Part shown: piece by piece, positions 13,776 to 50,760 of the stretch
Layout: every line of letters starts with the position of its first letter
How positions within the stretch are numbered: the first letter of the stretch is position 1
Source: Dehalococcoidia bacterium
GTDB taxonomy: Bacteria > Chloroflexota > Dehalococcoidia > DSTF01 > JACRBR01
DNA: 53,367 nucleotides
Assembly: GCA_041494685.1 (NCBI GenBank)
Contig: JBGQBE010000019.1
Location: 1 to 53,367, forward strand
Direction of reading: 5' to 3'
Notes under the pieces: model-generated
Told to the model about the DNA's origin: nothing
The model's database searches: none
The model's input: the letters and a program-made list of their open reading frames with translations, nothing else
Translations under genes and position numbers: made by a program

Positions 13776-13887
13776 GAGAACCCAGAACTGAGAACCTGGA
13801 ACCTGTGGGTAAGACGGGGCACTGTCGCACAATCGAAGCGCTGGTTCTAGGCACCGTGTCCAGGACCCAGAACCTAGAACCCCAGAG
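13776..13887. repeat. Degenerate heptamer tandem repeats (NAGAACC-type)
   Basis: GAGAACC-CAGAACT-GAGAACC-TGGAACC at 13776; CAGGACC-CAGAACC-TAGAACC at 13861. Confidence 0.7.
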
Positions 13888-18995: not shown

Positions 18996-19110
18996 TTTGC
19001 CCTTTGCCGTTTGCTGTTTGCCGTTTGCTGTTCGCCGTCGTTCTGTTGTCCGTTGTCTGTTGTCTGCTGTTCGCCGTTTGCTGTTCGCCGTCATCCTGTT
19101 GTCTGCTGTC
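18996..19110. repeat. Degenerate heptamer tandem repeat array (TTTGCYG/TTGTCTG)
   Basis: TTTGCCC TTTGCCG TTTGCTG TTTGCCG TTTGCTG TTCGCCG ... TTGTCCG TTGTCTG TTGTCTG; intergenic and strand-skewed. Confidence 0.85.
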
Positions 19111-32825: not shown

Positions 32826-34262
32826 ATGAGCGGGATCCCCAGCTCGGTATTCCGGCCGCGAAGCGTGGCGATCGTCGGCGCGTCGGCGAACGTCGATAGC
32901 CCCGGCCACGACTACGTGCGCGCCATCGTCGACGCCGGCTTCGCGGGGCCGGTCTACCCGATCAACCCCCGCGCGCCGGAGATCCTGGGCCTGCAGGCGT
33001 ACCCTTCGCTTTCGGCCGTGCCAGGCGACGTCGACCTCGTCATCTCCTGCATCCCGGCCGACCGCGTGCTGGAGCTGATCGGCGAGTGTAAGGCGAAGGG
33101 TGCGACGACGCTGCACCTCTTCACCGGCCGCTTCAGCGAGACCGGCGACGCGAAGGCAGCCGAGCTGGAGCGCGAGGTGCAGCGCGTCGCCGCGGCGGCG
33201 GGCGTGCGGATCATCGGGCCGAATTGCATGGGCGTGTTCGACTCGGCATCCGGCCTGTCGTTCCGGCCGGACCTGCCGAACGAGCGCGGCGACGTCGCGT
33301 TCATCTCGCAGAGCGGCAACAACTCGGTCGAGTTGATGCTGCACGGCGCGGCGCGTGGCCTGCGCTTCAGCAAGGTCGTGAGCTACGGCAACGCGCTCGA
33401 CATCACCGAGGCCGACTTCCTGGACTTCCTCGCCGACGACCCCGAGACGCGGGTCGTCGGCGCCTACATCGAGGGCACGCGCGACGGTCGGCACTTCTTC
33501 GAGGCGCTGCGGCGGTGCGCACGGGCCAAGCCGGTCGTGATCCTGAAGGGCGGCCGGACCGGCGCCGGGTCGCGCACGGCCGCCTCGCACACGGCGGCGC
33601 TGGCGGGCCAGCGGCAGGTCTGGAGCGCGGTGCTGCGCCAGGCCGGCGCGGTCGAGGTCGCGACGTTCGACGATCTGATCGACATGCTGGTCGCGTTCGC
33701 ATTCCTGCGCGGCGGCGAGGGGGCGGCCCGCGGCACCGAGCGGCCGCGCGCGGGCATCGTCGGGGGCGGCGGCGGCCGCGCGGTGCAGTCGGCGGACGTC
33801 TGCGAGGAGGCCGGGCTCTCGGTGCGGAAGCTGCCGGAGAGCATCCGGGCGATGCTCCGCGAGAAGGCGCCGCAGCTGGCGGACTGGGTCGACAACCCGG
33901 TGGACCAGTCGATCCTGGCGGGCAGCGGCGTCTCGGGCGCGCGCGTGCTGGAGATGATGCTGGACGCGCCGGAGATCGACGCGCTGATCGCGAACGTCGG
34001 TGAAGACTGGGTGCTGGGCCGGCCGGACGCGATCGACCGGATGGCGCACCTGGTGGACCGCTTCGTGGCGATCGGCGTGAAATCAAAGAAGCCGATGGCG
34101 TTCGTGCTGGGGCCGGCGGACTCGCCGGACGAGACGAAATGGCGCGCGGTGGAGGGCGGGCGAGGGCGGCTGACGGACGCGCGCCTCGCGGTGTACCCCA
34201 GCGTCGACCGCGCCGCCTCCGCGCTGGCGCGCTACCTGCGATCCCTGCGCGACAGGGAGTAG
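32826..34262 (+). CDS. Acyl-CoA synthetase (NDP-forming), CoA-binding alpha subunit
   Basis: FRPRSVAIVGAS; IIGPNCMG; FISQSG; SYGNALD; AASHTAALAG. Confidence 0.9.
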   Translation: MSGIPSSVFRPRSVAIVGASANVDSPGHDYVRAIVDAGFAGPVYPINPRAPEILGLQAYPSLSAVPGDVDLVISCIPADRVLELIGECKAKGATTLHLFTGRFSETGDAKAAELEREVQRVAAAAGVRIIGPNCMGVFDSASGLSFRPDLPNERGDVAFISQSGNNSVELMLHGAARGLRFSKVVSYGNALDITEADFLDFLADDPETRVVGAYIEGTRDGRHFFEALRRCARAKPVVILKGGRTGAGSRTAASHTAALAGQRQVWSAVLRQAGAVEVATFDDLIDMLVAFAFLRGGEGAARGTERPRAGIVGGGGGRAVQSADVCEEAGLSVRKLPESIRAMLREKAPQLADWVDNPVDQSILAGSGVSGARVLEMMLDAPEIDALIANVGEDWVLGRPDAIDRMAHLVDRFVAIGVKSKKPMAFVLGPADSPDETKWRAVEGGRGRLTDARLAVYPSVDRAASALARYLRSLRDRE

Positions 34263-34498
34263 CCGAGGGCCGCCCGGACCGCCACATCCCGCCCGAATGC
34301 AGCCACCTCGGCGCGGCCGCCTTTCCCGAAGGGCGGAGCCTCCGCTGCCTCCCCCTGGTCTCCGGCCGCCCCATCATCGACGCGTCACCCGCGACCTATC
34401 CGGCCGGATCAGGGGGTTCCCGTACGCGATCTGCCGCGGATCTCGGGGTGGAGACACGGAGAAGCGCCGGCTGAGTGCCGGCTGAGGGTGCGCGCACC

Positions 34499-34525
34499 TA
34501 CATTCCGCCGGGAGGGTGTCGATAT
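34499..34525 (+). promoter_or_regulatory. Candidate sigma28-type promoter upstream of flaH
   Basis: TACA-N15-GTCGATAT versus consensus TAAA-N15/16-GCCGATAW; one mismatch in each element. Confidence 0.6.
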
Positions 34526-34638
34526 AGATATAGGAGCCCAGCGCGGAGCGCCGGGCGTCTGCGCATGCATCCTCGCGTGCGCGGGCATGGAAGCCGCGCG
34601 AGCCCACAGGGCTGGCGTACGGGTGGGAGGCAGGAGCC

Positions 34639-35361
34639 GTGGTAGCAGAAGCAGCAGTCGACGGCGCGCGTCGGGTCGTATCGACCGGCAGTGGCGAGAT
34701 CGACAAGAAGATGGGTGGCGGCATCCCGGAAGGCTCGCTGATCCTCATCGAGGGGTCGTCGAACGCCGGGAAGAGCGTCGTGACGCAGCAGTTCATCCAC
34801 GGTGCGCTGAACAGCGGGTTCCGCTGCGTGCTGTACACGACCGAGAACACGGCGCGCAGCCTCTTCCGCCAGATGGCGAGCCTGAGCCTGGACGTGACCG
34901 ACTTCTACCTGCTGGGCGCGTTCAACGTGTACCCGGTACCGGCCGCCATGACGCCAGACGCCGCGAGCACCGCGTTCGCCAAGCTGCTCGAGCATTTCGC
35001 GCAGTTGGAGGGCAAGTTCGACGTCATCTTCATCGACGCGATGACGTCGTTCGTGTCGCAGGTGCCGGAGAGCCAGACCCTGCAGTTCCTGACGGCCGTG
35101 AAGCGGTTCGTGGACGACAACATGACCATCTTCTTCACGCTGCACTCGCACGCGTTTGAGGAGGCGATGTTCATGCGGATGCGGTCGCTGTGCGACGCCC
35201 ATCTGCGGCTGCGCACCGAAGAGATGCGCGACCAGCTGATGAAGGTGCTGGAAGTCGCGAAGGTGCGGGGCGCCGAGAAGACGACCGGTAACATCGTGAG
35301 CTTTGACGTGGAGCCAGGACTGGGCATGCGGATCATCCCCGTGTCGAGCGCCAAGGCGTAG
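34639..35361 (+). CDS. flaH: Archaellum accessory RecA/KaiC-fold ATPase FlaH (ArlH)
   Basis: STGSGEIDKKMGGGIPEGSLILIEG; Walker A GSSNAGKS; YTTE; atypical Walker B FIDAMT; KVRGA...FDVEPGLG. Single domain, directly upstream of flaI. Confidence 0.87.
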   Translation: MVAEAAVDGARRVVSTGSGEIDKKMGGGIPEGSLILIEGSSNAGKSVVTQQFIHGALNSGFRCVLYTTENTARSLFRQMASLSLDVTDFYLLGAFNVYPVPAAMTPDAASTAFAKLLEHFAQLEGKFDVIFIDAMTSFVSQVPESQTLQFLTAVKRFVDDNMTIFFTLHSHAFEEAMFMRMRSLCDAHLRLRTEEMRDQLMKVLEVAKVRGAEKTTGNIVSFDVEPGLGMRIIPVSSAKA

Positions 35362-35370
35362 CAAGGAACC

Positions 35371-37143
35371 ATGCCGCAGCGTCTGCCGTTCGAGGCCCCG
35401 GAGCAGATCGACGACCACGGCGGTGGGCAGGCAGTATCGTGCCCGCTCCACAACCTGCTCTCGCCCGAGCTGCGCGACGTGGCGGACGAGGCGCCGCACC
35501 TGATGCGGTACCTGCATAAGGTGCCGTTCAACGAGTTCGGCGTGCCGGACTTCTACCCGGAAGTCAACCGGAAGATGGGCGACATGAAGGACCCAAACTT
35601 CATCTACCCGGTGGGCGTCAACAGTTTCATCCACATCTTCCCGGACAACCAGGAGGCCCGGAACTATTACATCGCCATCGAGCCGGGCTCCGACACGATG
35701 GGCGACCTGATCGAGCAGATGGAGTTCCGCCTGCTGGACTTCGTGGAGATCCTCGCCGACGCGATCTCTCCCGAAGAGAAGACCGAAGTGCTGCTCAAGG
35801 CGATCGAGGACTCGTGCGAGGTGGTGGACCGCAGCGCGGAGCCGGCCGCGGTGGGCGCCGCCAAGGTCAAGAAGGGCGAGGGCGGGTTCCTCAAGCTGCC
35901 GTTTGGCGGCGGGAAGGAAGGCGCCCGCGGCGGGAAGATGAAGGTCACCGAGTTCGAGATGGAGAGCCTGCGGTACATGGTGATCCGCGACAAGGTGGGC
36001 ATGGGGCCGCTGGAGCCGCTGATCAGCGACCCGTGGATTGAGGACATCAGCTGCAGCGGCATCGGCCCCGTGTACATCGAGCACAAGGTGTTCGGCGGGC
36101 TGAAGAGCAGCATCAACTTCGACACGCACGAAGAGCTGGACGACTTCGTGCTGAAGCTGGCAGAGAAGATGAAGAAGCCGGTGACGTTCCGCAGCCCGAT
36201 CGTGGACGCGACGCTGCCGGACGGCTCGCGTATCAACATCGTCTACGGCGGCGACGTCTCGAAGAACGGATCGAACTTCACCATCAGAAAGTTCATGGGC
36301 ATCCCGCTGAGCATCGTGGACATCTGCAACTCCGGGATGCTCACCTGGCAAATGGCGGGGTACATGTCGCTGATCGTGGAAGAAGGGATGAACTTCTTCG
36401 TCTCGGGTGAGACGGCCTCCGGTAAGACGACGCTGATGAACTCGTTGATGACGTTCATCCGGCCCGACGCGAAGATCGTCAGCATCGAGGACACGCCGGA
36501 AGTCCAGGTGCCGCATCCGAACTGGACGCGGGAGGTCGTCCGCGGCGCGATGAGCCAGGGCGGCGGCAGCGTGGACATGTTCAGCCTGCTGAAAGCCGCC
36601 CTCCGCCAGCGACCCAACCAGATCATCATCGGAGAGATCCGCGGAGAGGAGGGGAACATCGCGTTCCAGGCCATGATGACCGGCCACGCGGTGTGCTCCA
36701 CGTTCCACGCGGCCACGGTAGAGAAGCTGATCCAGCGTGTCACGGGTGTGCCGATCAGCGTGCCGCGGACGTACGTTGAGAACCTGAACGTAGTCGTGAT
36801 CTGCAGCTCCGTGCGCCTGCCCACCGGCAAGATGGGCCGCCGGATCCTGAGCATCAGCGAGATCATCGGCTACGACCCGGTCGCGGGTTCGTTCTCGTTC
36901 ATCGAGGTGTACCGGTGGGACCCCGTGAAGGACGAGTTCGAGTTCGTCGGCCTGAACAACAGCTACCTGCTGGAGCAGCGCATCGCCCCCAACAGGGGAC
37001 TGTCCGAGAAGAAGCGCCGGATGATCTACAAGGAAGTGGACCGCCGGGGCGCGCTCCTCCAGAAACTGGCCGAGTCGGGAGTCAGCAACTTCTACGAGCT
37101 GTTCAAGCTCCTCTCGAAGGCACAGAAGCAGGGGCTGTTCTAG
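35371..37143 (+). CDS. flaI: Archaellum motor/assembly ATPase FlaI (ArlI)
   Basis: Archaeal-type N-terminus PHLMRYL...PNFIYPV...FIHI; DPWIEDISCSG; LPDGSRINIVYG; GETASGKTT; LRQRPNQIIIGEIRG; TGH/TFHA His boxes; F.WDPVKD.F C-terminal domain. Confidence 0.9.
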   Translation: MPQRLPFEAPEQIDDHGGGQAVSCPLHNLLSPELRDVADEAPHLMRYLHKVPFNEFGVPDFYPEVNRKMGDMKDPNFIYPVGVNSFIHIFPDNQEARNYYIAIEPGSDTMGDLIEQMEFRLLDFVEILADAISPEEKTEVLLKAIEDSCEVVDRSAEPAAVGAAKVKKGEGGFLKLPFGGGKEGARGGKMKVTEFEMESLRYMVIRDKVGMGPLEPLISDPWIEDISCSGIGPVYIEHKVFGGLKSSINFDTHEELDDFVLKLAEKMKKPVTFRSPIVDATLPDGSRINIVYGGDVSKNGSNFTIRKFMGIPLSIVDICNSGMLTWQMAGYMSLIVEEGMNFFVSGETASGKTTLMNSLMTFIRPDAKIVSIEDTPEVQVPHPNWTREVVRGAMSQGGGSVDMFSLLKAALRQRPNQIIIGEIRGEEGNIAFQAMMTGHAVCSTFHAATVEKLIQRVTGVPISVPRTYVENLNVVVICSSVRLPTGKMGRRILSISEIIGYDPVAGSFSFIEVYRWDPVKDEFEFVGLNNSYLLEQRIAPNRGLSEKKRRMIYKEVDRRGALLQKLAESGVSNFYELFKLLSKAQKQGLF

Positions 37144-37241
37144 GGTTGGGAAGCTAGAAGTTGGAAATTGGAGACTGGGGATTGAGCGACTGAGCCCCTT
37201 CTCGAACCCCACCGACCAGAGACCAGCGACCAGCGACCAGT
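37144..37241. repeat. Heptamer repeat tracts downstream of flaI
   Basis: TAGAAGT TGGAAAT TGGAGAC TGGGGAT, then GACCAGA GACCAGC GACCAGC GACCAGT (37214-37241). Confidence 0.7.
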
Positions 37242-37271
37242 ATCTACGCCCCAACCCCCAGCATCCCATCC

Positions 37272-37312
37272 GAGGGTTCACCCCTAAGGGATTCGCCTAA
37301 CGCTGCCGATAC
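37272..37312 (+). promoter_or_regulatory. Sigma28-type promoter overlapped by tandem palindromes
   Basis: TAAG (37285)-N16-GCCGATAC (37305); GAGGGTTCACCCCTA (37272) and TAAGGGATTCGCCTA (37285). Confidence 0.62.
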
Positions 37313-37370
37313 TTCCGTGAGCAATGTGCCGCGCCTCGTGGGCGCGCGCTCTCGGAAGGCGGTGAGCGGC

Positions 37371-37715
37371 ATGGCATTCGGCAAGAAGAAGGACAGCGGG
37401 GCGGCGCCTGCCGTCGAGGCCACGGACTACGGCATCGAGGTCTCGGACGCGTTGTTCGCCGAGCAGCCGGCGGAGGAAGAAGACCCGATCGCGGCGGGCC
37501 TGCTGGCGGAGGAGGAGGCCGAGGCGGCCAAGGACCCGTTCGCGGGCGACCTCCTCAACATGTTCCAGACCACCCAGATAGAGACGGACGACTTGACGGT
37601 CCTGCTCGACCTGGCTGGCGACGTGGACGTGGACGACCTGCTCGAGGATCTGCAGACGATCGCCGCGGCGATGGGATGCAACCTGGTGACCGCGGAGGAA
37701 TACACGGCGGCCTGA
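37371..37715 (+). CDS. Small highly acidic hypothetical protein
   Basis: MAFGKKK start; Asp/Glu-rich; C-terminal DVDVDDLLEDLQ amphipathic segment; host-like codon usage. Confidence 0.8.
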   Translation: MAFGKKKDSGAAPAVEATDYGIEVSDALFAEQPAEEEDPIAAGLLAEEEAEAAKDPFAGDLLNMFQTTQIETDDLTVLLDLAGDVDVDDLLEDLQTIAAAMGCNLVTAEEYTAA

Positions 37716-37928
37716 GGGTGGATAGTCCACAGGAGACAGCTCGCAGTTCGAGACAGGGGCGGATCAGTGATCCGCCCCGTCCTCGTTGTGTGCCCGGCCG
37801 ATCACGTGGCGTTGGGGGACCGCGCCCTCGTGGCGCGGCGAGCCCGCTCTCCACAGTGACCGGCCAGCCGTCTACTCGAAATCGTTTGCCTTCCCCTAAA
37901 CAATTGGCACTGGCATACTCCCCCCGTT

Positions 37929-38342
37929 ATGCCAAAACGACCCATTCCCCAAGCGACACCCGAGACCGCCGAATTCTGGGCCGGCACGAAGCGGCACCAG
38001 CTGCGCATCCAGCGCTGCAACGGCTGCGGCAAGGCCTACTTCTTCCCGCGGCCGTTCTGCCCGTCCTGCTCGTCACGCGACGTGGCATGGTTCACGGCGA
38101 GCGGACGGGGCAAGCTCTACTCGTACGTCATCAACTACCGCGCGGCGCACGGCTTCCAGGACTACGCGCCGTACGTCATCGCCGTCGTGGAGCTGGAAGA
38201 GGGGCCGCGGATGATGACCAACATCATCGGCATCGAGCCGACCCCCGAGAACCTGCCCATCGACCTGCCGGTCGAGGTGACGTGGGAGGAGCAGGACGCG
38301 GAGATCACGCTGCCGCTCTTCCGCCCCAGGAGCGCATCATGA
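37929..38342 (+). CDS. Zn-ribbon OB-fold protein (DUF35/ChsH2-like)
   Basis: FWAG...IQRCNGCG...FPRPFCPSC; VELEEGPRMMTNI. Confidence 0.92.
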   Translation: MPKRPIPQATPETAEFWAGTKRHQLRIQRCNGCGKAYFFPRPFCPSCSSRDVAWFTASGRGKLYSYVINYRAAHGFQDYAPYVIAVVELEEGPRMMTNIIGIEPTPENLPIDLPVEVTWEEQDAEITLPLFRPRSAS

Positions 38343-39487
38343 GCCTGCGCATGAGCGTCGCCATCGTCGGCGCGGCCGAGACCGACAGCGTCGCCATCCA
38401 GCCCGACAAGTCCGCGATCCAGCTGCACGCGGAGGCGGCGCTGAACGCGCTGGCCGACGCCGGCATCAGCAAGGACGACGTGGATGCGGTGCTCTGCGCC
38501 GGCCAGTCGCCCGTGGCGGTGGCGGAGTACCTTGGCATCGTGCCGACGTACATCGACGGCACCTCGGTGGGCGGCTGCTCGTTCATGCTCCACGTGCGGC
38601 ACGCGGCCGCGGCGATCAAGGCCGGCCTGTGCACCACGGCGCTGATCACGCACGGTCAGAGCGGCCGGTCGCGCGTCGGCGAGAGCGGCTGGGGGCAGTC
38701 GCGGCAGAGCCTGAGCGCGCAGTTCGAGGAGCCGTACGGCGTGGCGGGGCCGCCGACGCGCTTCACCATCCCGATCCTGCGCCACATGCACGAGTACGGC
38801 ACGACGCACGAGCAGCTCGCCTCCGTCGCGGTGGCGACACGGCGCTGGGCGGAAACGAACCCGCGCGCGATGATGCGCGATCCGATCACGATCGAAGACG
38901 TCCTGAACTCGCGGATGATCGCCTACCCGGTGCACCTGCTGGAGTGCTGCCTCGTCACCGACGGCGGCGGCGCGCTGGTGATGGTCTCGGCGGAGCGGGC
39001 GAAAGACTTCCCGAAGAAGCCGGTCTACCTGCTCGGATCGGGCGAGTCGTCCGAGCACTCGATGATCAGCCAGATGGTGGACTTCACGGAGTCGCGCGCG
39101 TTCAAGGTGTCGGGGCAGCTGGCGTTCAAGGAAGCCGGCATCGCCCACAAGGACATCGACCACGCGATGTTCTACGACGCGTTCGCGCACACGCCGATGT
39201 TCGCGCTCGAGGCGCTGGGCTTCGTGGGCAAGGGCGAGAGCGGGCCGTTCTTCGCCGAGATGCGGACGGCGCCCGGCGGCGACTTCCCGCTGAACACGAA
39301 CGGCGGCGGCCTGAGCTACACCCACACCGGCATGTACGGCATGTTCGCGATCCAGGAGTCGGTGCGACAGCTCCGCGGCGAGGCCGCAAACCAGCTGCCG
39401 AACGTGCGCACGAGCATCTCGCACGGCGTGGGCGGCATGTTCCACGCGGCCGGCACGCTGATCCTGACGAACGACGAGCGCGCATAG
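38339..39487 (+). CDS. SCP2-type thiolase / Ltp2-like aldolase
   Basis: AIVGAAE; ECCLVTDGGGA; YDAF; NTNGGGLSYTHTG. ATGA-coupled to the DUF35 gene. Confidence 0.9.
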   Translation: MSLRMSVAIVGAAETDSVAIQPDKSAIQLHAEAALNALADAGISKDDVDAVLCAGQSPVAVAEYLGIVPTYIDGTSVGGCSFMLHVRHAAAAIKAGLCTTALITHGQSGRSRVGESGWGQSRQSLSAQFEEPYGVAGPPTRFTIPILRHMHEYGTTHEQLASVAVATRRWAETNPRAMMRDPITIEDVLNSRMIAYPVHLLECCLVTDGGGALVMVSAERAKDFPKKPVYLLGSGESSEHSMISQMVDFTESRAFKVSGQLAFKEAGIAHKDIDHAMFYDAFAHTPMFALEALGFVGKGESGPFFAEMRTAPGGDFPLNTNGGGLSYTHTGMYGMFAIQESVRQLRGEAANQLPNVRTSISHGVGGMFHAAGTLILTNDERA

Positions 39488-42012: not shown

Positions 42013-43731
42013 TCAGTTCGCCGGACGTTCGTGAGAAGCGCGGGCGCGCGCGATCGTTCGACCCGAGTGCCGCGCTGGACGCCGCACGCGCGGCAGCTTC
42101 CGCAGCTCGCCCGCGCGCGCTACGGCCAGTGCGATGCCCGGGAGCTGCAAATCGCTGCCATACATGAGGTAACGCGGCTCCCACCGCGGTTGGAACTTCT
42201 CCTTGAACTCACGCAGCCCCGTGTATCGGAAGAGGAACGAGCCGCGGCGGTACAGCAGGCTCATCGCGCGCGCGGCCGGCGACCTGGGCGCGCTGACGTC
42301 GACTCCGCTGAACGGCGCTAGCCCGAGGTTCATGCCGTCGAATCCACGTGCGCTGAAGTACTGAATCAGTGAGATGTAGAGGAAGTCCGCGACTGCCTTC
42401 GGCTCGCTGCCATAACGGAGCATATCGAAGTTGCCATCCGGCGAGTTGTACGAAGGGATGATGTTGGCGAACGCGACAATCTTCTCGTCGGGTGCGCGCA
42501 CGAGCATGATGGGACAGTCCTGCAACATCGATTCATCGAACTGGCCGAGTGTGAAGGTGCGCTCACGGCGGCGGCCCTCGGCGAGCCACGCATCTGAGAT
42601 CTCTCGAAGCCGTTGGAGCAATTCCGCGGTGTGCGGCGGACCAACGACTTCCGTCCCGTAGCCTTCGCGCGCGAAGCGGTTCATCGTCGCGCGCAGATGC
42701 TTCGCGGGCGTACCGGAGAGCGTGAACTCCCCTACCGCGACGATCGCCTCCTCGCCGATCTTCAGCGGTTTGAGCCCGTGACGTGCGTACAAGTCGAGGT
42801 ATCGCGGCGTCGCCTGATGGAAGGCGTACGCCCATCCATCCAGTTCGCAGTGTTCATGGAACGCATCGAGCAGCCGCGGAAATTCGGATTCGTCGCCGAT
42901 CGGATCACCCATGACCACGGCCGTGTTGCCCACCACCTTGAACGCCAGCACCGCGTGGCCCGGCTCCGAGAAGAAATACGCCTTGTCGGGCAGCAGTGCG
43001 AAGTAGGCGATCGATGTCCGGCCGTAGCGCTCGAGCAGGGCCCGCACTCGATCGCGTTCAGCCCGCCCTGTGCTGATGCGATGGATGATGGGCTGCAGCA
43101 GCAGCGACACGCCGGCCACAGAGACGGTGAGGAACGCGACACGCACGGAATCCACAAACCAGGTGCCGTGCGGCGTCTTCGGCTGGGACTCGGTCGCGGG
43201 CACGATGAACAGCAGGCGCACGCTGTCGGCGATCGCCGTGCCGATGTGGATACGCTGGCTGAACTCCCGGTCGAGCAGCCACAGTCCCGCGACGCTGTAG
43301 ACAAACACCGCCGCGGTCCCGACGACCAGGACCCCGACGCCGAGTGCGAACCGAGGCGGGTCGCTGCGCGCCGGGAACTGTGTGCGGGCCCCGACAAGCA
43401 CCCCGGCGAGCATGACGCTCGCCAGCGTCCCCCAGAGATCGACATTCTTGAGCGGATGCGCCGCTGCGGACGCTCCGCAGCACGCGAGCGCGATCATCCA
43501 CGCCAGCCGTTTGCCGTGAAGCAGCCCCGGCACCGTCGTCAGCAGCAACAGGCCGACGACGATCAGCACGAAGCGGCTTCCGTTGATAACGCCCGTCTCG
43601 ACGACATCCTCGATCTGGCCGAATCCCGAGAACGGCGCGGGGAACGCCGTGAGAAACACGTCGAACAGCCCGAGCACCGTCGCGGCCAGCGCGATCAGGC
43701 GGCGCTCCGTGCGACTGTGAGGTTTCGTCAT
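42013..43731 (-). CDS. Aminoacyl-phosphatidylglycerol synthase catalytic part (MprF C-terminal / DUF2156)
   Basis: N-terminal TM segments; DKAYFFS; MGDPIG; LKIGEEA; ERTFTLG; NLGLAPF; GLREFKEKFQPRWEPRYL. Confidence 0.9.
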   Translation of the reverse strand: MTKPHSRTERRLIALAATVLGLFDVFLTAFPAPFSGFGQIEDVVETGVINGSRFVLIVVGLLLLTTVPGLLHGKRLAWMIALACCGASAAAHPLKNVDLWGTLASVMLAGVLVGARTQFPARSDPPRFALGVGVLVVGTAAVFVYSVAGLWLLDREFSQRIHIGTAIADSVRLLFIVPATESQPKTPHGTWFVDSVRVAFLTVSVAGVSLLLQPIIHRISTGRAERDRVRALLERYGRTSIAYFALLPDKAYFFSEPGHAVLAFKVVGNTAVVMGDPIGDESEFPRLLDAFHEHCELDGWAYAFHQATPRYLDLYARHGLKPLKIGEEAIVAVGEFTLSGTPAKHLRATMNRFAREGYGTEVVGPPHTAELLQRLREISDAWLAEGRRRERTFTLGQFDESMLQDCPIMLVRAPDEKIVAFANIIPSYNSPDGNFDMLRYGSEPKAVADFLYISLIQYFSARGFDGMNLGLAPFSGVDVSAPRSPAARAMSLLYRRGSFLFRYTGLREFKEKFQPRWEPRYLMYGSDLQLPGIALAVARAGELRKLPRVRRPARHSGRTIARARASHERPAN

Positions 43732-44774
43732 GGCGTCGCCGTGTTCGCTCTCGGCTCGTGCACGAACCGCAGCGCGATCGCTCCCAGGACCAGGGGGATC
43801 CAGAATTCGTAGAGGCGATAGAGCAATGCGACCGCGATCGCCGAGTGGCGGTCGACGCCGAACGAGACGAGAAGCAGGCCGAGGGACGCCTCCACGAATC
43901 CGATGCCGCCCGGCGTCACGGCCACCATCGCGAACAGGAACGACATTGCGTAGCCGGCGAGCGCCATCTCGAACCGCACCTCGACATGCAGCGACCGCGC
44001 GACGACGTACAGCGTTGCCACACTGACCATCTCGACCAGCATGGCATGCCCGAACGGCACGATGTATGCCGCGGGGTTGCGCTTCACGTGCGCGACCGCG
44101 TCATACAGTTCGTTGACCGTCTTGATCGCCGTCGCTCGTTCTACGAACGGATCCCGGCGTAGCAGGTGGGCGATCACGTTAAGGGGCCGCGCCACGAGCA
44201 GGTACATTCGCTCGAGCGCAGCTTCGCTGCGAAGTCCGGCCGCCATGATGACGGCGCTCACCACAACGATGACGAGCATCGTGATCGATGCCGCCACCTC
44301 CGCTGTCTGCAGCGAGCCGCGCAGGTAGAGCAGGATCAGCGCCGTGATCAGCACGGTGAAGTACGCCATGTAGCCCAGCACGTACGCGGTGAGGTACGCC
44401 GCGGTGATGCGCGCCGACGACTCACCGAAGCGCCGTCCCTCGCGGAGGTAGAGGGCAATGCCACCGAGCCCGCCGCTCTTGGAGATGATGTTCACGAAGT
44501 GCGAGGCCGACGTCAGGAGAATAAAGCGTCCATGCGTTGCCTGGACGCGGCTTGCCCGGAACGTCGAGGTGTAGAACAGCGCCAGGTTCAGGACGAAGAC
44601 AACCTCGATCCCAATCGCCGCCGCAAGGTACCGCCGGTCGGCCGCCTGGATCGCGCGCCAGATCTGCCGGAGCTCGCCGATGTTCGTCGCGATGCCGAAG
44701 GCCATGACGGCCAGCATCACGATCCAGAAGATCCGCGCGATCGGTACGTGGCCGCGTGTTGCCGTCGTCCGCAC
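43728..44774 (-). CDS. Lysylphosphatidylglycerol synthase TM (MprF flippase-like) protein
   Basis: Polytopic; TPGGIGFVEAS; ALLYRLYEFWIP. ATGA-coupled to the DUF2156 gene. Confidence 0.87.
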   Translation of the reverse strand: MRTTATRGHVPIARIFWIVMLAVMAFGIATNIGELRQIWRAIQAADRRYLAAAIGIEVVFVLNLALFYTSTFRASRVQATHGRFILLTSASHFVNIISKSGGLGGIALYLREGRRFGESSARITAAYLTAYVLGYMAYFTVLITALILLYLRGSLQTAEVAASITMLVIVVVSAVIMAAGLRSEAALERMYLLVARPLNVIAHLLRRDPFVERATAIKTVNELYDAVAHVKRNPAAYIVPFGHAMLVEMVSVATLYVVARSLHVEVRFEMALAGYAMSFLFAMVAVTPGGIGFVEASLGLLLVSFGVDRHSAIAVALLYRLYEFWIPLVLGAIALRFVHEPRANTATP

Positions 44775-45130: not shown

Positions 45131-46360
45131 CTAATACCTGAGGATCGCGGCCGCGCCGTGCGAGCGCAGCAGTTCGGCGGCCTCGCCGCGCACGAACTCC
45201 ACCTCCGCGTCTGTCGCCATCGCCAGACGCGCCGCCTGTGCCGCCAGATCGTCGATCACCCACACGGGCTCGTCGCAGAGCGGGCACAGCTCGGTGTGCC
45301 GCTTGGCGACAAAGTGGCCCTCGGGGCACGCGTAGCCACTGGCGGTCTCGCCCTCGATCAACACCAGCCGGTGCACGCGGCCCTCGCCGAGCGCGGCGAG
45401 CGTGCCGTCCCAGCCGGTGACCGCGAGTTGGCCCTTCGGAGCGCGCTCCAGGATGTCCGACACCAGCGCGGCCTCGTGGGTGCGCTCCGCCTGCTCCTCG
45501 ATGCCGCGAACACGGTCGACGAGCTCGGCATCGGACGCGTACCACTCGCCCCCAAACTCTCCGACGACCCTCGCGGCGAGCGAACGGGGCAACATCGGCC
45601 GTAGGGCTGACACCGCCTCCGGGGGACCACCGATGATCAGCCGATCGAAGGTCCGGTGACGGCTCAGCCGCCACAACTCGTCGATGACCCGCTGCAGATG
45701 CAGATGCACATGGTATTCGAGGTGGCGGACGTACGCGGCCTGGGAGCTGTGAACTCGGCCCGGGCCCATCTCCGCGATGTTCCCGCGGCCCCGCGGCGCA
45801 GGCGCCGTTGCCCAATCACCGCCGCCGGGGCGCCCCGGCAGCGGATCGGCGAACTCGCTCCGCTGTTCGATGCGTCCCATCCAGACCGTGAGGAAACGGG
45901 CGCGCTCCTTGTCCACGAGCGCAACACAGTAGCGCTCGTGTTCGTCGAGCGCGGCGATGAGAGGCAAGAGGTAGGCGCGTGGCCAGAATCGCGCGCCGGT
46001 GAGCACGGGCACGTCGAGGGCGACGGGCAAGAACGTGTCCAGCGCCAGCGAGCTGAAGATGGCGACCGAGCGCCCCGGCGCCACATCCCAGCTGCGGACG
46101 TAGGCGTTCACGCGATCGATCTCCTGTTCGAGTCGCACGGCCAGGTCCGTGTCGCGTACCTGCGCGCGTACCGGCTTCCACAGGTCAAGAAGCGCAGCTT
46201 CGAACCCCTCGCGCTGCATCTCGGACGGTTCTACGTCGAGGTACACGCTGAGCACGCCATCACGCGCCTCGAGGCGCGTGACGCGATCCAGAGTGTCGGG
46301 CTGGAACGTCAGCGCCGGATAAGTGTCGAGCGAGATGACGCCGCCGTCGTTGTGTGGCAT
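45131..46360 (-). CDS. Bacterial aRF1/eRF1-like release factor (baeRF type) with C-terminal zinc ribbon
   Basis: VLSVYLDV; PRAYLLPL; ALVDKERARF; SQAAYVRH; LIIGGP; AVTGWDGTLAALGEGRVHRL; CPEGH...CPLC; GAAAILRY end. Confidence 0.87.
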   Translation of the reverse strand: MPHNDGGVISLDTYPALTFQPDTLDRVTRLEARDGVLSVYLDVEPSEMQREGFEAALLDLWKPVRAQVRDTDLAVRLEQEIDRVNAYVRSWDVAPGRSVAIFSSLALDTFLPVALDVPVLTGARFWPRAYLLPLIAALDEHERYCVALVDKERARFLTVWMGRIEQRSEFADPLPGRPGGGDWATAPAPRGRGNIAEMGPGRVHSSQAAYVRHLEYHVHLHLQRVIDELWRLSRHRTFDRLIIGGPPEAVSALRPMLPRSLAARVVGEFGGEWYASDAELVDRVRGIEEQAERTHEAALVSDILERAPKGQLAVTGWDGTLAALGEGRVHRLVLIEGETASGYACPEGHFVAKRHTELCPLCDEPVWVIDDLAAQAARLAMATDAEVEFVRGEAAELLRSHGAAAILRY

Positions 46361-50646: not shown

Positions 50647-50732
50647 CGCCAGCACGGACGGGATCCTCGGCTGTCGCTCCCCCGTTCATGGCTCTCGCTC
50701 CTCCATTCTCGGTTCTCGCCGCCGGCTTCCCA

Positions 50733-50760
50733 GGTTCTGGGTTCTTGGTTCTCGGTTCTG
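50733..50760. repeat. Heptamer tandem repeat GGTTCTN x4
   Basis: GGTTCTG GGTTCTT GGTTCTC GGTTCTG; reverse complement of the NAGAACC units at 50630 and 13776. Confidence 0.8.

Follow-up and report, generated by a model that had tools for sequence, protein, structure and literature searches.

The DNA analyzed here, referred to as the window, is the complete 53,367-nt contig C19 (JBGQBE010000019.1) of an 87-contig, 3.29-Mb draft genome (G000, 97.6% complete) of a Dehalococcoidia bacterium. Two adjacent genes on its forward strand, arlH (flaH; 34639–35361, GTG start, 240 aa) and arlI (flaI; 35371–37143, 590 aa), were assigned by profile matches, the former to an ATP-binding protein of the KaiC/RecA type that consists of one domain and partners with ArlI, the latter to a hexameric ATPase of the secretion superfamily; arlH lies directly 5′ of arlI, with 9 nt separating its stop codon (35361) from the arlI start codon (35371). 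In archaea, ArlI is an ATPase hexamer that sits on the membrane platform ArlJ and drives both archaellin assembly and rotation, and ArlH binds and modulates ArlI. No arlJ, arlF/G or arlB is found anywhere in the 53-kb window. We consider it very probable that arlH and arlI, together with a small acidic gene in the window, X1, form the cytoplasmic motor module of a single archaellum, the genes of which are split between two distant chromosomal sites.

A preliminary description of this DNA had named the pair as adjacent FlaH and FlaI of archaeal type, and the open reading frames, together with the top-ranked profiles and structures, bear this out. ArlI matches NF058587 “archaellum ATPase motor FlaI” at 636 bits (cut-off 550) over model positions 2–522 of 527 and retains the whole FlaI-specific N-terminal region of that model, with the runner-up families BasE (191 bits) and TadA (169 bits) far lower; it contains the Pfam domain T2SSE of the secretion-ATPase superfamily. 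Its best solved relative is Sulfolobus acidocaldarius FlaI (4ii7, E 7e-127; CpaF follows at 1.5e-43), with ArlI residues 198–589 aligning with FlaI 114–503. ArlH exceeds the cut-off of 194 on NCBIfam NF004723 “flagellar accessory protein FlaH”, with 263.5 bits, falls below the cut-off on two further models, the ArlH equivalog NF052589 (188.8 versus 215) and NF006320 (100.7 versus 215), and has as its best solved relative FlaH 4yds (E 3.7e-32, full length; ArlH 13–239 on FlaH 2–227). The ranking of profiles and structures thus places the proteins with FlaI and FlaH, and not with Tad ATPases and KaiC/GvpD, the grouping that the preliminary description had named as the contrary outcome. Residues G39, S41, G44, K45 and S46 of the ArlH Walker A motif are identical in 20/20 sequences. 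In ArlI, G346-E-T-A-S-G-K-T-T354, E373-D-T-P-E377, G421-E-I-R-G425/E427 and H439/H446 are invariant in 21/21 sequences, two of which come from archaeal-type loci; we take these stretches, at positions given by the alignment, to represent the Walker A, Walker B, acidic and His boxes.

The codon usage of the pair is host-like, as had been described, with a G+C content at third codon positions (GC3) of 0.909 and 0.929 for arlH and arlI versus 0.952 and 0.943 for the two bacterial genes upstream. Pairwise comparison with nine relatives gives ratios of nonsynonymous to synonymous substitution (dN/dS) of 0.11–0.30 for arlI and 0.07–0.33 for arlH at dS 0.4–1.1, values that indicate purifying selection on both genes. 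That the pair is an archaeal fragment, transferred recently or in decay, and non-functional in its bacterial host could be argued from the scores of ArlJ, ArlF and ArlG, which lie under curated cut-offs (see below), and from function in this clade being deduced from genes, but we consider it very unlikely, given the host-like codons, the dN/dS of 0.07–0.33 over dS 0.4–1.1, the invariant catalytic residues, the occurrence of the genes in 66–68 of 93 genomes of the order and the conservation of bacterium-specific additions (amidase, X gene and NarL-type regulator). A cultured member of the Chloroflexota, moreover, swims with an archaellum (Sivabalasarma et al., Nat Microbiol 2025, PMC12488501).

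Filament and platform genes elsewhere in the genome

The preliminary description had reported flaJ, flaF/G and flaB as absent, which holds for the window; the genome has all of them, on contigs C33, C51 and C27, and a whole-genome search of the kind that the description had proposed recovers these missing parts and no flaHI paralogue. PF01917 gives seven genome matches on C33, C51 and C27, namely five archaellin genes and two ArlG/F-like genes, with at least four arlB copies on C33/C51 and one further arlB on C27. The order on C51 is arlB, arlB, a 234-aa coiled-coil protein, an ArlG-like protein, an ArlF-like protein, ArlJ, a 137-aa protein termed X2 and Amidase_3, with the coiled-coil protein being, by its gene position, a candidate ArlCDE-like component. 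The archaellin gene at the C33 end is incomplete, cut by the contig end, and since the C33 end and the C51 start both lie within archaellin genes, the two contigs probably join. Pfam T2SSF (PF00482) matched only the Tad loci in the genome and not ArlJ, so that a Pfam-only search would falsely imply that arlJ is missing. The genome further holds one Peptidase_A24 and three CheW matches, and no bacterial flagellin was found in it. Archaellin(s), class III signal peptidase, ArlF/G, ArlH, ArlI and ArlJ are all present in this one genome, ArlF/G and ArlJ below cut-offs; of the arlHIJ core, arlH lies beside arlI and arlJ (contig C51) does not, and the archaellum genes do not share one locus, as a single-locus criterion would have them.

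ArlI is the only genome match above the FlaI cut-off, and ArlH is single-copy as well. Two weaker ATPases on the FlaI model (196 and 176 bits) lie beside TadB/C-type genes on C9 and C10, and the genome has two Tad loci, each with its own CpaF-type ATPase and TadB/C. One of the two readings put forward in the preliminary description, an additional ATPase module able to swap onto the motor or to serve some other filament, is set aside on these grounds: arlHI has no second copy, the arlJ module is ATPase-less and the Tad loci own CpaF-type ATPases. A related explanation has arlH–arlI repurposed for another filament or secretion system (e.g., Tad-type or other type IV), or as a stand-alone KaiC-like signaling pair, with arlB..J left as a remnant. 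The position of arlHI among metabolic genes and distant from arlJ would suit repurposing, as would the near-complete genome G030 (97%), which has arlHI without detectable arlJ or arlF/G, and the extra arlHI-only copies in two relatives (G044:C2 and G070:C36), but we regard it as very unlikely: no other ATPase is available in the genome for the arlJ module, CpaF and TadB/C are encoded within each of the two Tad loci, ArlI keeps the FlaI-specific N-terminal region (model 2–522 of 527), and the same rare palindrome lies 5′ of both modules. Also, ArlI and ArlJ are found together in 28/36 genomes of the family, the window's own included; of the 8 genomes that are discordant or empty, 7 are incomplete or have neither gene.

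The other reading of the preliminary description, a split and long-domesticated locus, is upheld by the single ArlI and single ArlH, the ATPase-less arlJ module elsewhere, the host-like codons, the purifying selection and the nested relatives described below. From these data we predict that the pair is the motor half of one bacterial archaellum, long resident in its host and divided over two sites, the split layout being what is new. With ArlJ, the stator-like ArlG/ArlF, the ArlCDE-like protein, the archaellins and the amidase encoded at the second locus, such a machine must assemble from two transcription units. The Amidase_3 gene (N-acetylmuramoyl-L-alanine amidase, C51 5831–6847, with an N-terminal membrane segment) in the arlJ neighborhood is the last gene of the cluster in split loci and, within the order, in many canonical ones (L058–L074); it may be an addition specific to bacteria, the product of which makes an opening in the peptidoglycan for the archaellum.

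Split layout across relatives and proposed relocation of the cassette

Thirty-four related loci were fetched, the close ones coming from metagenome-assembled genomes (MAGs) labeled Dehalococcoidia, Chloroflexia or Chloroflexota. In the closest loci, arlH–arlI occupies the same acyl-CoA synthetase/X1/ChsH2-like/thiolase setting, with no other arl gene in the flanks fetched (≤10 kb, shorter in several). Genome G025 of the genus JADMII01, a label that presumably derives, by GTDB convention, from the whole-genome-shotgun prefix of the assembly, carries arlH–arlI on one contig (L034, record JADMII010000001.1) and arlB, coiled-coil, arlG, arlF, arlJ and amidase on another (L073). In a single-contig closed relative (3.62 Mb), a distance of 1.57 Mb separates arlI (56,920–58,680) from arlJ (1,630,826–1,632,415).

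Across 93 genomes of the order, ArlI was found in 66 and ArlJ in 68. In families f2–f5, arlI and arlJ are adjacent in all 33 genomes that have both. The order in canonical loci is arlB(n), coiled-coil, arlG, arlF, arlH, arlI, arlJ, X, amidase. The window's own family has 28 genomes with both genes, divided into 2 canonical (genus g8), 4 divergent with the two modules ~6 kb apart (arlJ..arlB on one strand, arlH–arlI on the other) and 22 separated, the latter meaning that arlI and arlJ lie on different contigs save in the one closed genome with the 1.57-Mb distance. These 22 include G011, in which a contig end may have interrupted a divergent locus, and G007, whose ArlI match is poor and contains two TGA codons. 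A quick LG+G4 tree of ArlI (46 rows, rooted on 5 archaeal-type rows; 3 of 49 tblastn matches were left out for having <400 aligned residues) has the canonical genus g8 as sister, with a support of 92 in the Shimodaira–Hasegawa-like approximate likelihood-ratio test (SH-aLRT), to a 100%-supported clade of divergent and split loci, within which the 22 split rows form one group (SH-aLRT 94). Locus L041, labeled split due only to its 1.1-kb upstream flank, groups with a divergent locus. In the same tree, the window ArlI nests among the ArlI sequences of canonical arlB..J loci of its order. The nested series, from canonical through divergent to separated, indicates that the split layout is derived from the canonical one.

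An assembly or binning artefact, in which C19 (or C51/C33) is foreign or the modules are in truth adjacent across contig ends, is extremely improbable. The draft does come in 87 contigs, and tandem arlB copies break the assembly at the C33 end and C51 start, but the two ends of C19, on which there is no other arl gene, are 34.6 kb and 16.2 kb away from arlHI; the acyl-CoA synthetase/arlH/arlI/X1/ChsH2 context recurs in many species-level relatives; the single-contig 3.62-Mb chromosome has its modules 1.57 Mb apart; and GC3 is like that of the neighboring genes. The junctions are reproduced in independent metagenomes, with sediment contigs that span the upstream/arlH, the arlI/repeat/X1 and the X1/ChsH2 junctions at 0–3 differences.

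Several relatives carry features of their own. Two canonical genomes (G044:C2, L075; G070:C36, L076) have, next to a canonical locus, a second and long-branched arlI of 47–50% identity, in L075 with arlH beside it and neither arlJ nor X in the 18 kb fetched; these second genes may correspond to the “second incomplete locus” mentioned in PMC12488501. L045 (DATIYC010000028.1), a 9.4-kb contig labeled “Candidatus Acidiferrales bacterium” (Acidobacteriota), has a canonical arlB-G-H-I-J order and an ArlI that nests in Bathyarchaeia, and is probably a mis-binned archaeal contig, not a second archaellum-bearing bacterial phylum. L049 (10001–11731; a distant Dehalococcoidia MAG, 54% identity, canonical) has one stop codon in the ArlI frame, which may be a sequencing error or mark a pseudogene. 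In divergent loci, a 532–625-aa protein is encoded in the 2.4 kb that separate arlB from arlH (L040 7060–8937, minus strand; L042 7162–8760, minus strand); its dCache_1 match in L040 is weak and under the Pfam cut-off, and it may be a sensor between both modules.

The site at which the pair resides in the window is bordered by bacterial genes of other function. On the left lies a CoA_binding plus Succ_CoA_lig protein of the ADP-forming acyl-CoA synthetase type (32826–34262, plus strand, Pfam), an orthologue of which flanks arlH in 16/34 of the fetched loci, and on the right, also on the plus strand and assigned by Pfam, a ChsH2-type zinc-ribbon/OB-fold protein (37929–38342) and a thiolase-like protein (38339–39487), the synteny of which beside arlHI is kept in relatives. 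The preliminary description had thus placed the pair correctly between an acyl-CoA synthetase and a “thiolase pair”, the pair consisting in fact of a ChsH2-type and a thiolase-like gene, and it had overlooked the acidic gene X1. The acyl-CoA synthetase and the ChsH2-type/thiolase-like genes are outside the archaellum system. In the divergent-layout genome G035, the orthologues of the acyl-CoA synthetase and ChsH2-like genes are direct neighbors, ~200 bp apart, and in the divergent-layout genome G022 they are 1.2 kb apart, in both cases without arlHI between them; in G024 they are on different contigs. We infer that this junction in divergent genomes represents the empty site later taken by arlH–arlI–X1 in the split-group ancestor.

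X1 (37371–37715, plus strand), a conserved gene between arlI and the ChsH2-type gene, encodes a 114-aa acidic protein that starts with a short basic stretch (MAFGKKKD), continues through an acidic linker into a C-terminal helical motif and ends in Ala-Ala. Fifty-five database clusters contain it, each of them unnamed or annotated “hypothetical” and none with a Pfam domain, and the ESM Atlas returned only unnamed Chloroflexota clusters (0.81–0.83, below the lead threshold). X2 (C51 5410–5823, after arlJ) is a diverged 137-aa paralogue, and an X-family hidden Markov model (HMM) run on the six-frame open reading frames of the genome matches only X1 (E 7e-24) and X2 (E ~1e-3); it had no match in eight archaeal-type loci (L045–L048 and L050–L053), a very small sample. 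Canonical loci have one X, after arlJ, and divergent and split loci have X1 after arlI and X2 after arlJ. The two X copies, one per half, would fit a motor block that was duplicated and then underwent reciprocal loss better than simple excision. Nearly all X-family members, X1 and X2 alike, end in Ala-Ala (…YAA, …LAA, …RRKAA). Terminal Ala-Ala resembles the C-terminal ssrA-type recognition signal of ClpX, and by this analogy it would fit a proteolytically controlled factor. A predicted complex of ArlI, ArlH and X1 (with alignments, X1 as partner) gave 0.00 in a run without controls and is uninformative on binding either way.

Taken together, a block arlH–arlI–(arlJ)–X would first have been duplicated or relocated beside arlB, each half retaining an X paralogue; the cassette arlH–arlI–X1 would then have entered the intergenic site between the acyl-CoA synthetase and ChsH2/thiolase genes; and a common GGTG-N4-CACC operator, with a NarL/LuxR-type regulator encoded divergently from arlB, would synchronize the two halves.

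Candidate operator, regulator and intergenic elements

The candidate operator with promoter is a block (34485–34545, plus strand) ~150 nt 5′ of arlH that is conserved across genera in an alignment of 21 arlH upstream regions, and comprises a palindrome, GGTGCGCGCACC (34487–34498), followed by CTACATT and the AT-rich TCGATATAGATAT. This perfect palindrome, when taken with its TA extension, is unique in the genome. In 3.29 Mb, the form GGTG-N4-CACC is present at 70 sites; just two of these are within 40 bp of each other, and they lie 5′ of the first arlB, on C33 (33574–33608). Among split-clade loci it is present within 300 bp 5′ of arlH in 16/21 and 5′ of an arlB in 7/7. On visual comparison, the arlH and arlB upstream regions have no common motif besides this palindrome. 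Divergent from arlB, a GerE/LuxR-type (NarL-type) response regulator is encoded (C33 32686–33438), and is kept there in split and canonical loci; when aligned to VraR it has Gly in place of VraR Asp55, which we take to be the phospho-acceptor. The palindrome and a NarL-type regulator devoid of this residue suggest control in trans. The candidate operator would be bound by the NarL-type regulator, with arlH having gained its own copy on leaving the operon.

A broader proposal, which we put forward tentatively and hold to be possible yet rather doubtful, is that a whole soil and sediment family of Dehalococcoidia builds an archaeal rotary motor from two unlinked modules that form a small regulon, arisen by duplication and reciprocal loss, both halves and the archaellin genes being turned on by a single NarL-type regulator that has lost its phospho-acceptor and binds GGTG-N4-CACC. 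X1 and X2 would in this proposal be Chloroflexota-specific acidic proteins and a possible protease-controlled assembly or docking factor.

A number of observations weigh against the split archaellum and its regulon. ArlJ matches NF004703 with E 8e-137 and 456.7 bits, which is under the cut-off of 570, and has no Pfam match, and ArlG and ArlF were assigned from weak matches (32 and 24 bits) together with gene order. Separation of arlI and arlJ is read from different contigs in all separated genomes but one. G030 (97% complete; its locus L077 equals L024 in sequence) has arlH–arlI and one archaellin, no arlJ match and no ArlF/G-like match to the archaellin family, so that the two halves are not always found together; either its filament module is unbinned or its lineage is losing the module. 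GGTG-N4-CACC, in its N4 form, is missing 5′ of arlH in 5/21 split loci and in 5/5 divergent-clade loci, three of which carry the variant GGTGTACACC at the aligned place, and it lies 5′ of arlB in just 3/10 canonical loci; the relatives being kin, binomial p-values for the palindrome overstate the case. The HMM link between X1 and X2, the paralogues from which we infer the duplication-and-loss route, is weak (E ~1e-3). A search of RNA runs with window positions 34300–37900 listed no run containing the stretch, and the role of the archaellum in swimming in this clade is deduced from gene content. The split, two-site archaellum remains, with these points taken into account, the reading that we hold very probable.

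Scanning of 34000–38400 for sigma-70 promoters gave 0 promoter-like sites, and a terminator scan of the same interval gave two terminator-like sites, both within arlI and at chance level. A G+C-rich stem-loop with a 10-bp stem, read from the sequence 40 nt 3′ of the X1 stop (37756–37778, plus strand), probably marks where the transcription unit ends; it has no T-run and was for this reason passed over by the simple terminator scan. The heptamer repeats 3′ of flaI noted in the preliminary description are present at 37209–37240 (4.6 copies of CCAGCGA by Tandem Repeats Finder, TRF) and lie in the 3′ arm of an imperfect, unstranded 115-nt hairpin (37143–37257; TRF and folding; dG −39.3 kcal/mol, z −2.44), in which a G/T-rich arm faces the C/A-rich arm containing the array. 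This hairpin may be a terminator or an RNA-stability element. We considered the heptamer repeats as a feature of the archaellum module and rejected this, the arrays being dispersed across the genome as a generic intergenic element: there are 208 period-7 arrays of ≥3 copies genome-wide, 9 of them of the same unit class as the CCAGCGA array and 147 with low-GC units (e.g., AACAGAC and AACCTAG). Often paired in inverted orientation, and then giving hairpins in intergenic DNA, these arrays recall the STRR (short tandemly repeated repetitive) sequences of cyanobacteria; in the window itself they lie at 13860–13882, 18996–19070, 37209–37240 and 50706–50759. Further downstream, an MprF-like lysyl-phosphatidylglycerol synthase is present as two adjacent open reading frames (42013–44774, minus strand; transmembrane region 43728–44774, C-terminal domain 42013–43731), adjoined by a baeRF family 10-like release-factor protein (45131–46360, minus strand) of the archaeo-eukaryotic type, here bacterial.

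Comparison with known systems

Bacterial archaella have been described only in 2023–2025, with Chloroflexota archaella published for Litorilinea aerophila and SAR202 (PMC12488501). The survey of 3,780 Chloroflexota genomes in that article, the reference in this field, required the genes to be co-localized in a single locus. Its table gives, in the rows listed, Archaeal-T4P = 1 in 4/24 and 0 in 20/24 for f__JACRBR01 (o__DSTF01), and Archaeal-T4P = 0 in 8/8 for g__JADMII01, including GCA_015478665.1 (species representative “JADMII01 sp015478665”). Split genomes were scored as archaellum-less, and the estimate of archaellum motility in soil and sediment Chloroflexota changes with their recognition. 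The link between the ATPase and platform genes, otherwise almost universal, can be broken with both halves under purifying selection. The analysis also yields testable parts, namely a candidate operator, a candidate regulator and the accessory protein family X, useful for studying the regulation and assembly of a cross-domain-acquired machine in a bacterial cell. If the tentative regulon proposal is true, locus-based surveys clearly under-count bacterial archaella, and this clade is a natural experiment in rewiring a horizontally acquired machine after operon breakage.

In the parts consulted, PMC12488501 makes no mention of the amidase, the small acidic gene or the regulator and operator; the texts of PMC13319060 and bioRxiv 10.64898/2026.05.11.724246 have 0 occurrences on split loci, arlH, amidase or Dehalococcoidia; and no split bacterial archaellum was described in a full-text literature search combining archaellum with Chloroflexota/Dehalococcoidia, as judged from titles and abstracts.

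Compared at the level of solved structures, S. acidocaldarius FlaI (4ii7/4ihq) and FlaH (4yds) and Methanocaldococcus jannaschii FlaH (4wia) are the best relatives, with conserved Walker motifs. Compared with Sulfolobus FlaI, the window ArlI has a longer and diverged N-terminal part of 200 residues, into which a Gly/Lys-rich stretch is inserted at ~160–190, and unlike the Sulfolobus and Methanocaldococcus genes, the pair in the window is bacterial and does not have flaJ next to it. The Tad ATPases CpaF/TadA, which work with TadB/TadC and are encoded at two loci in the genome, belong to the same superfamily (T2SSE), from which the window ArlI is set apart by its scores of 636 bits for FlaI versus 169 bits for TadA. 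The system studied here resembles the Chloroflexota archaellum of PMC12488501 in its gene set, in the arl2-type order with arlG before arlF, in having an ArlCDE-like protein rather than arlX, in a signal peptidase encoded elsewhere, in the missing bacterial flagellum and in the Tad pili alongside, and differs from it in that arlH–arlI is unlinked, 1.57 Mb off in the closed relative. Scattered archaellum and type IV filament genes are known from Asgard (Prometheoarchaeati) and DPANN (Nanobdellati) archaea (PLoS Genet 2026, PMC13705601), so that the split as such has an archaeal precedent; common to both cases are components at several sites, which searches for an ordered locus miss. In contrast to the Nanobdellati, in which the ATPase and platform genes stay close, this link is broken here, in a bacterium, and with a history that can be traced from canonical relatives.

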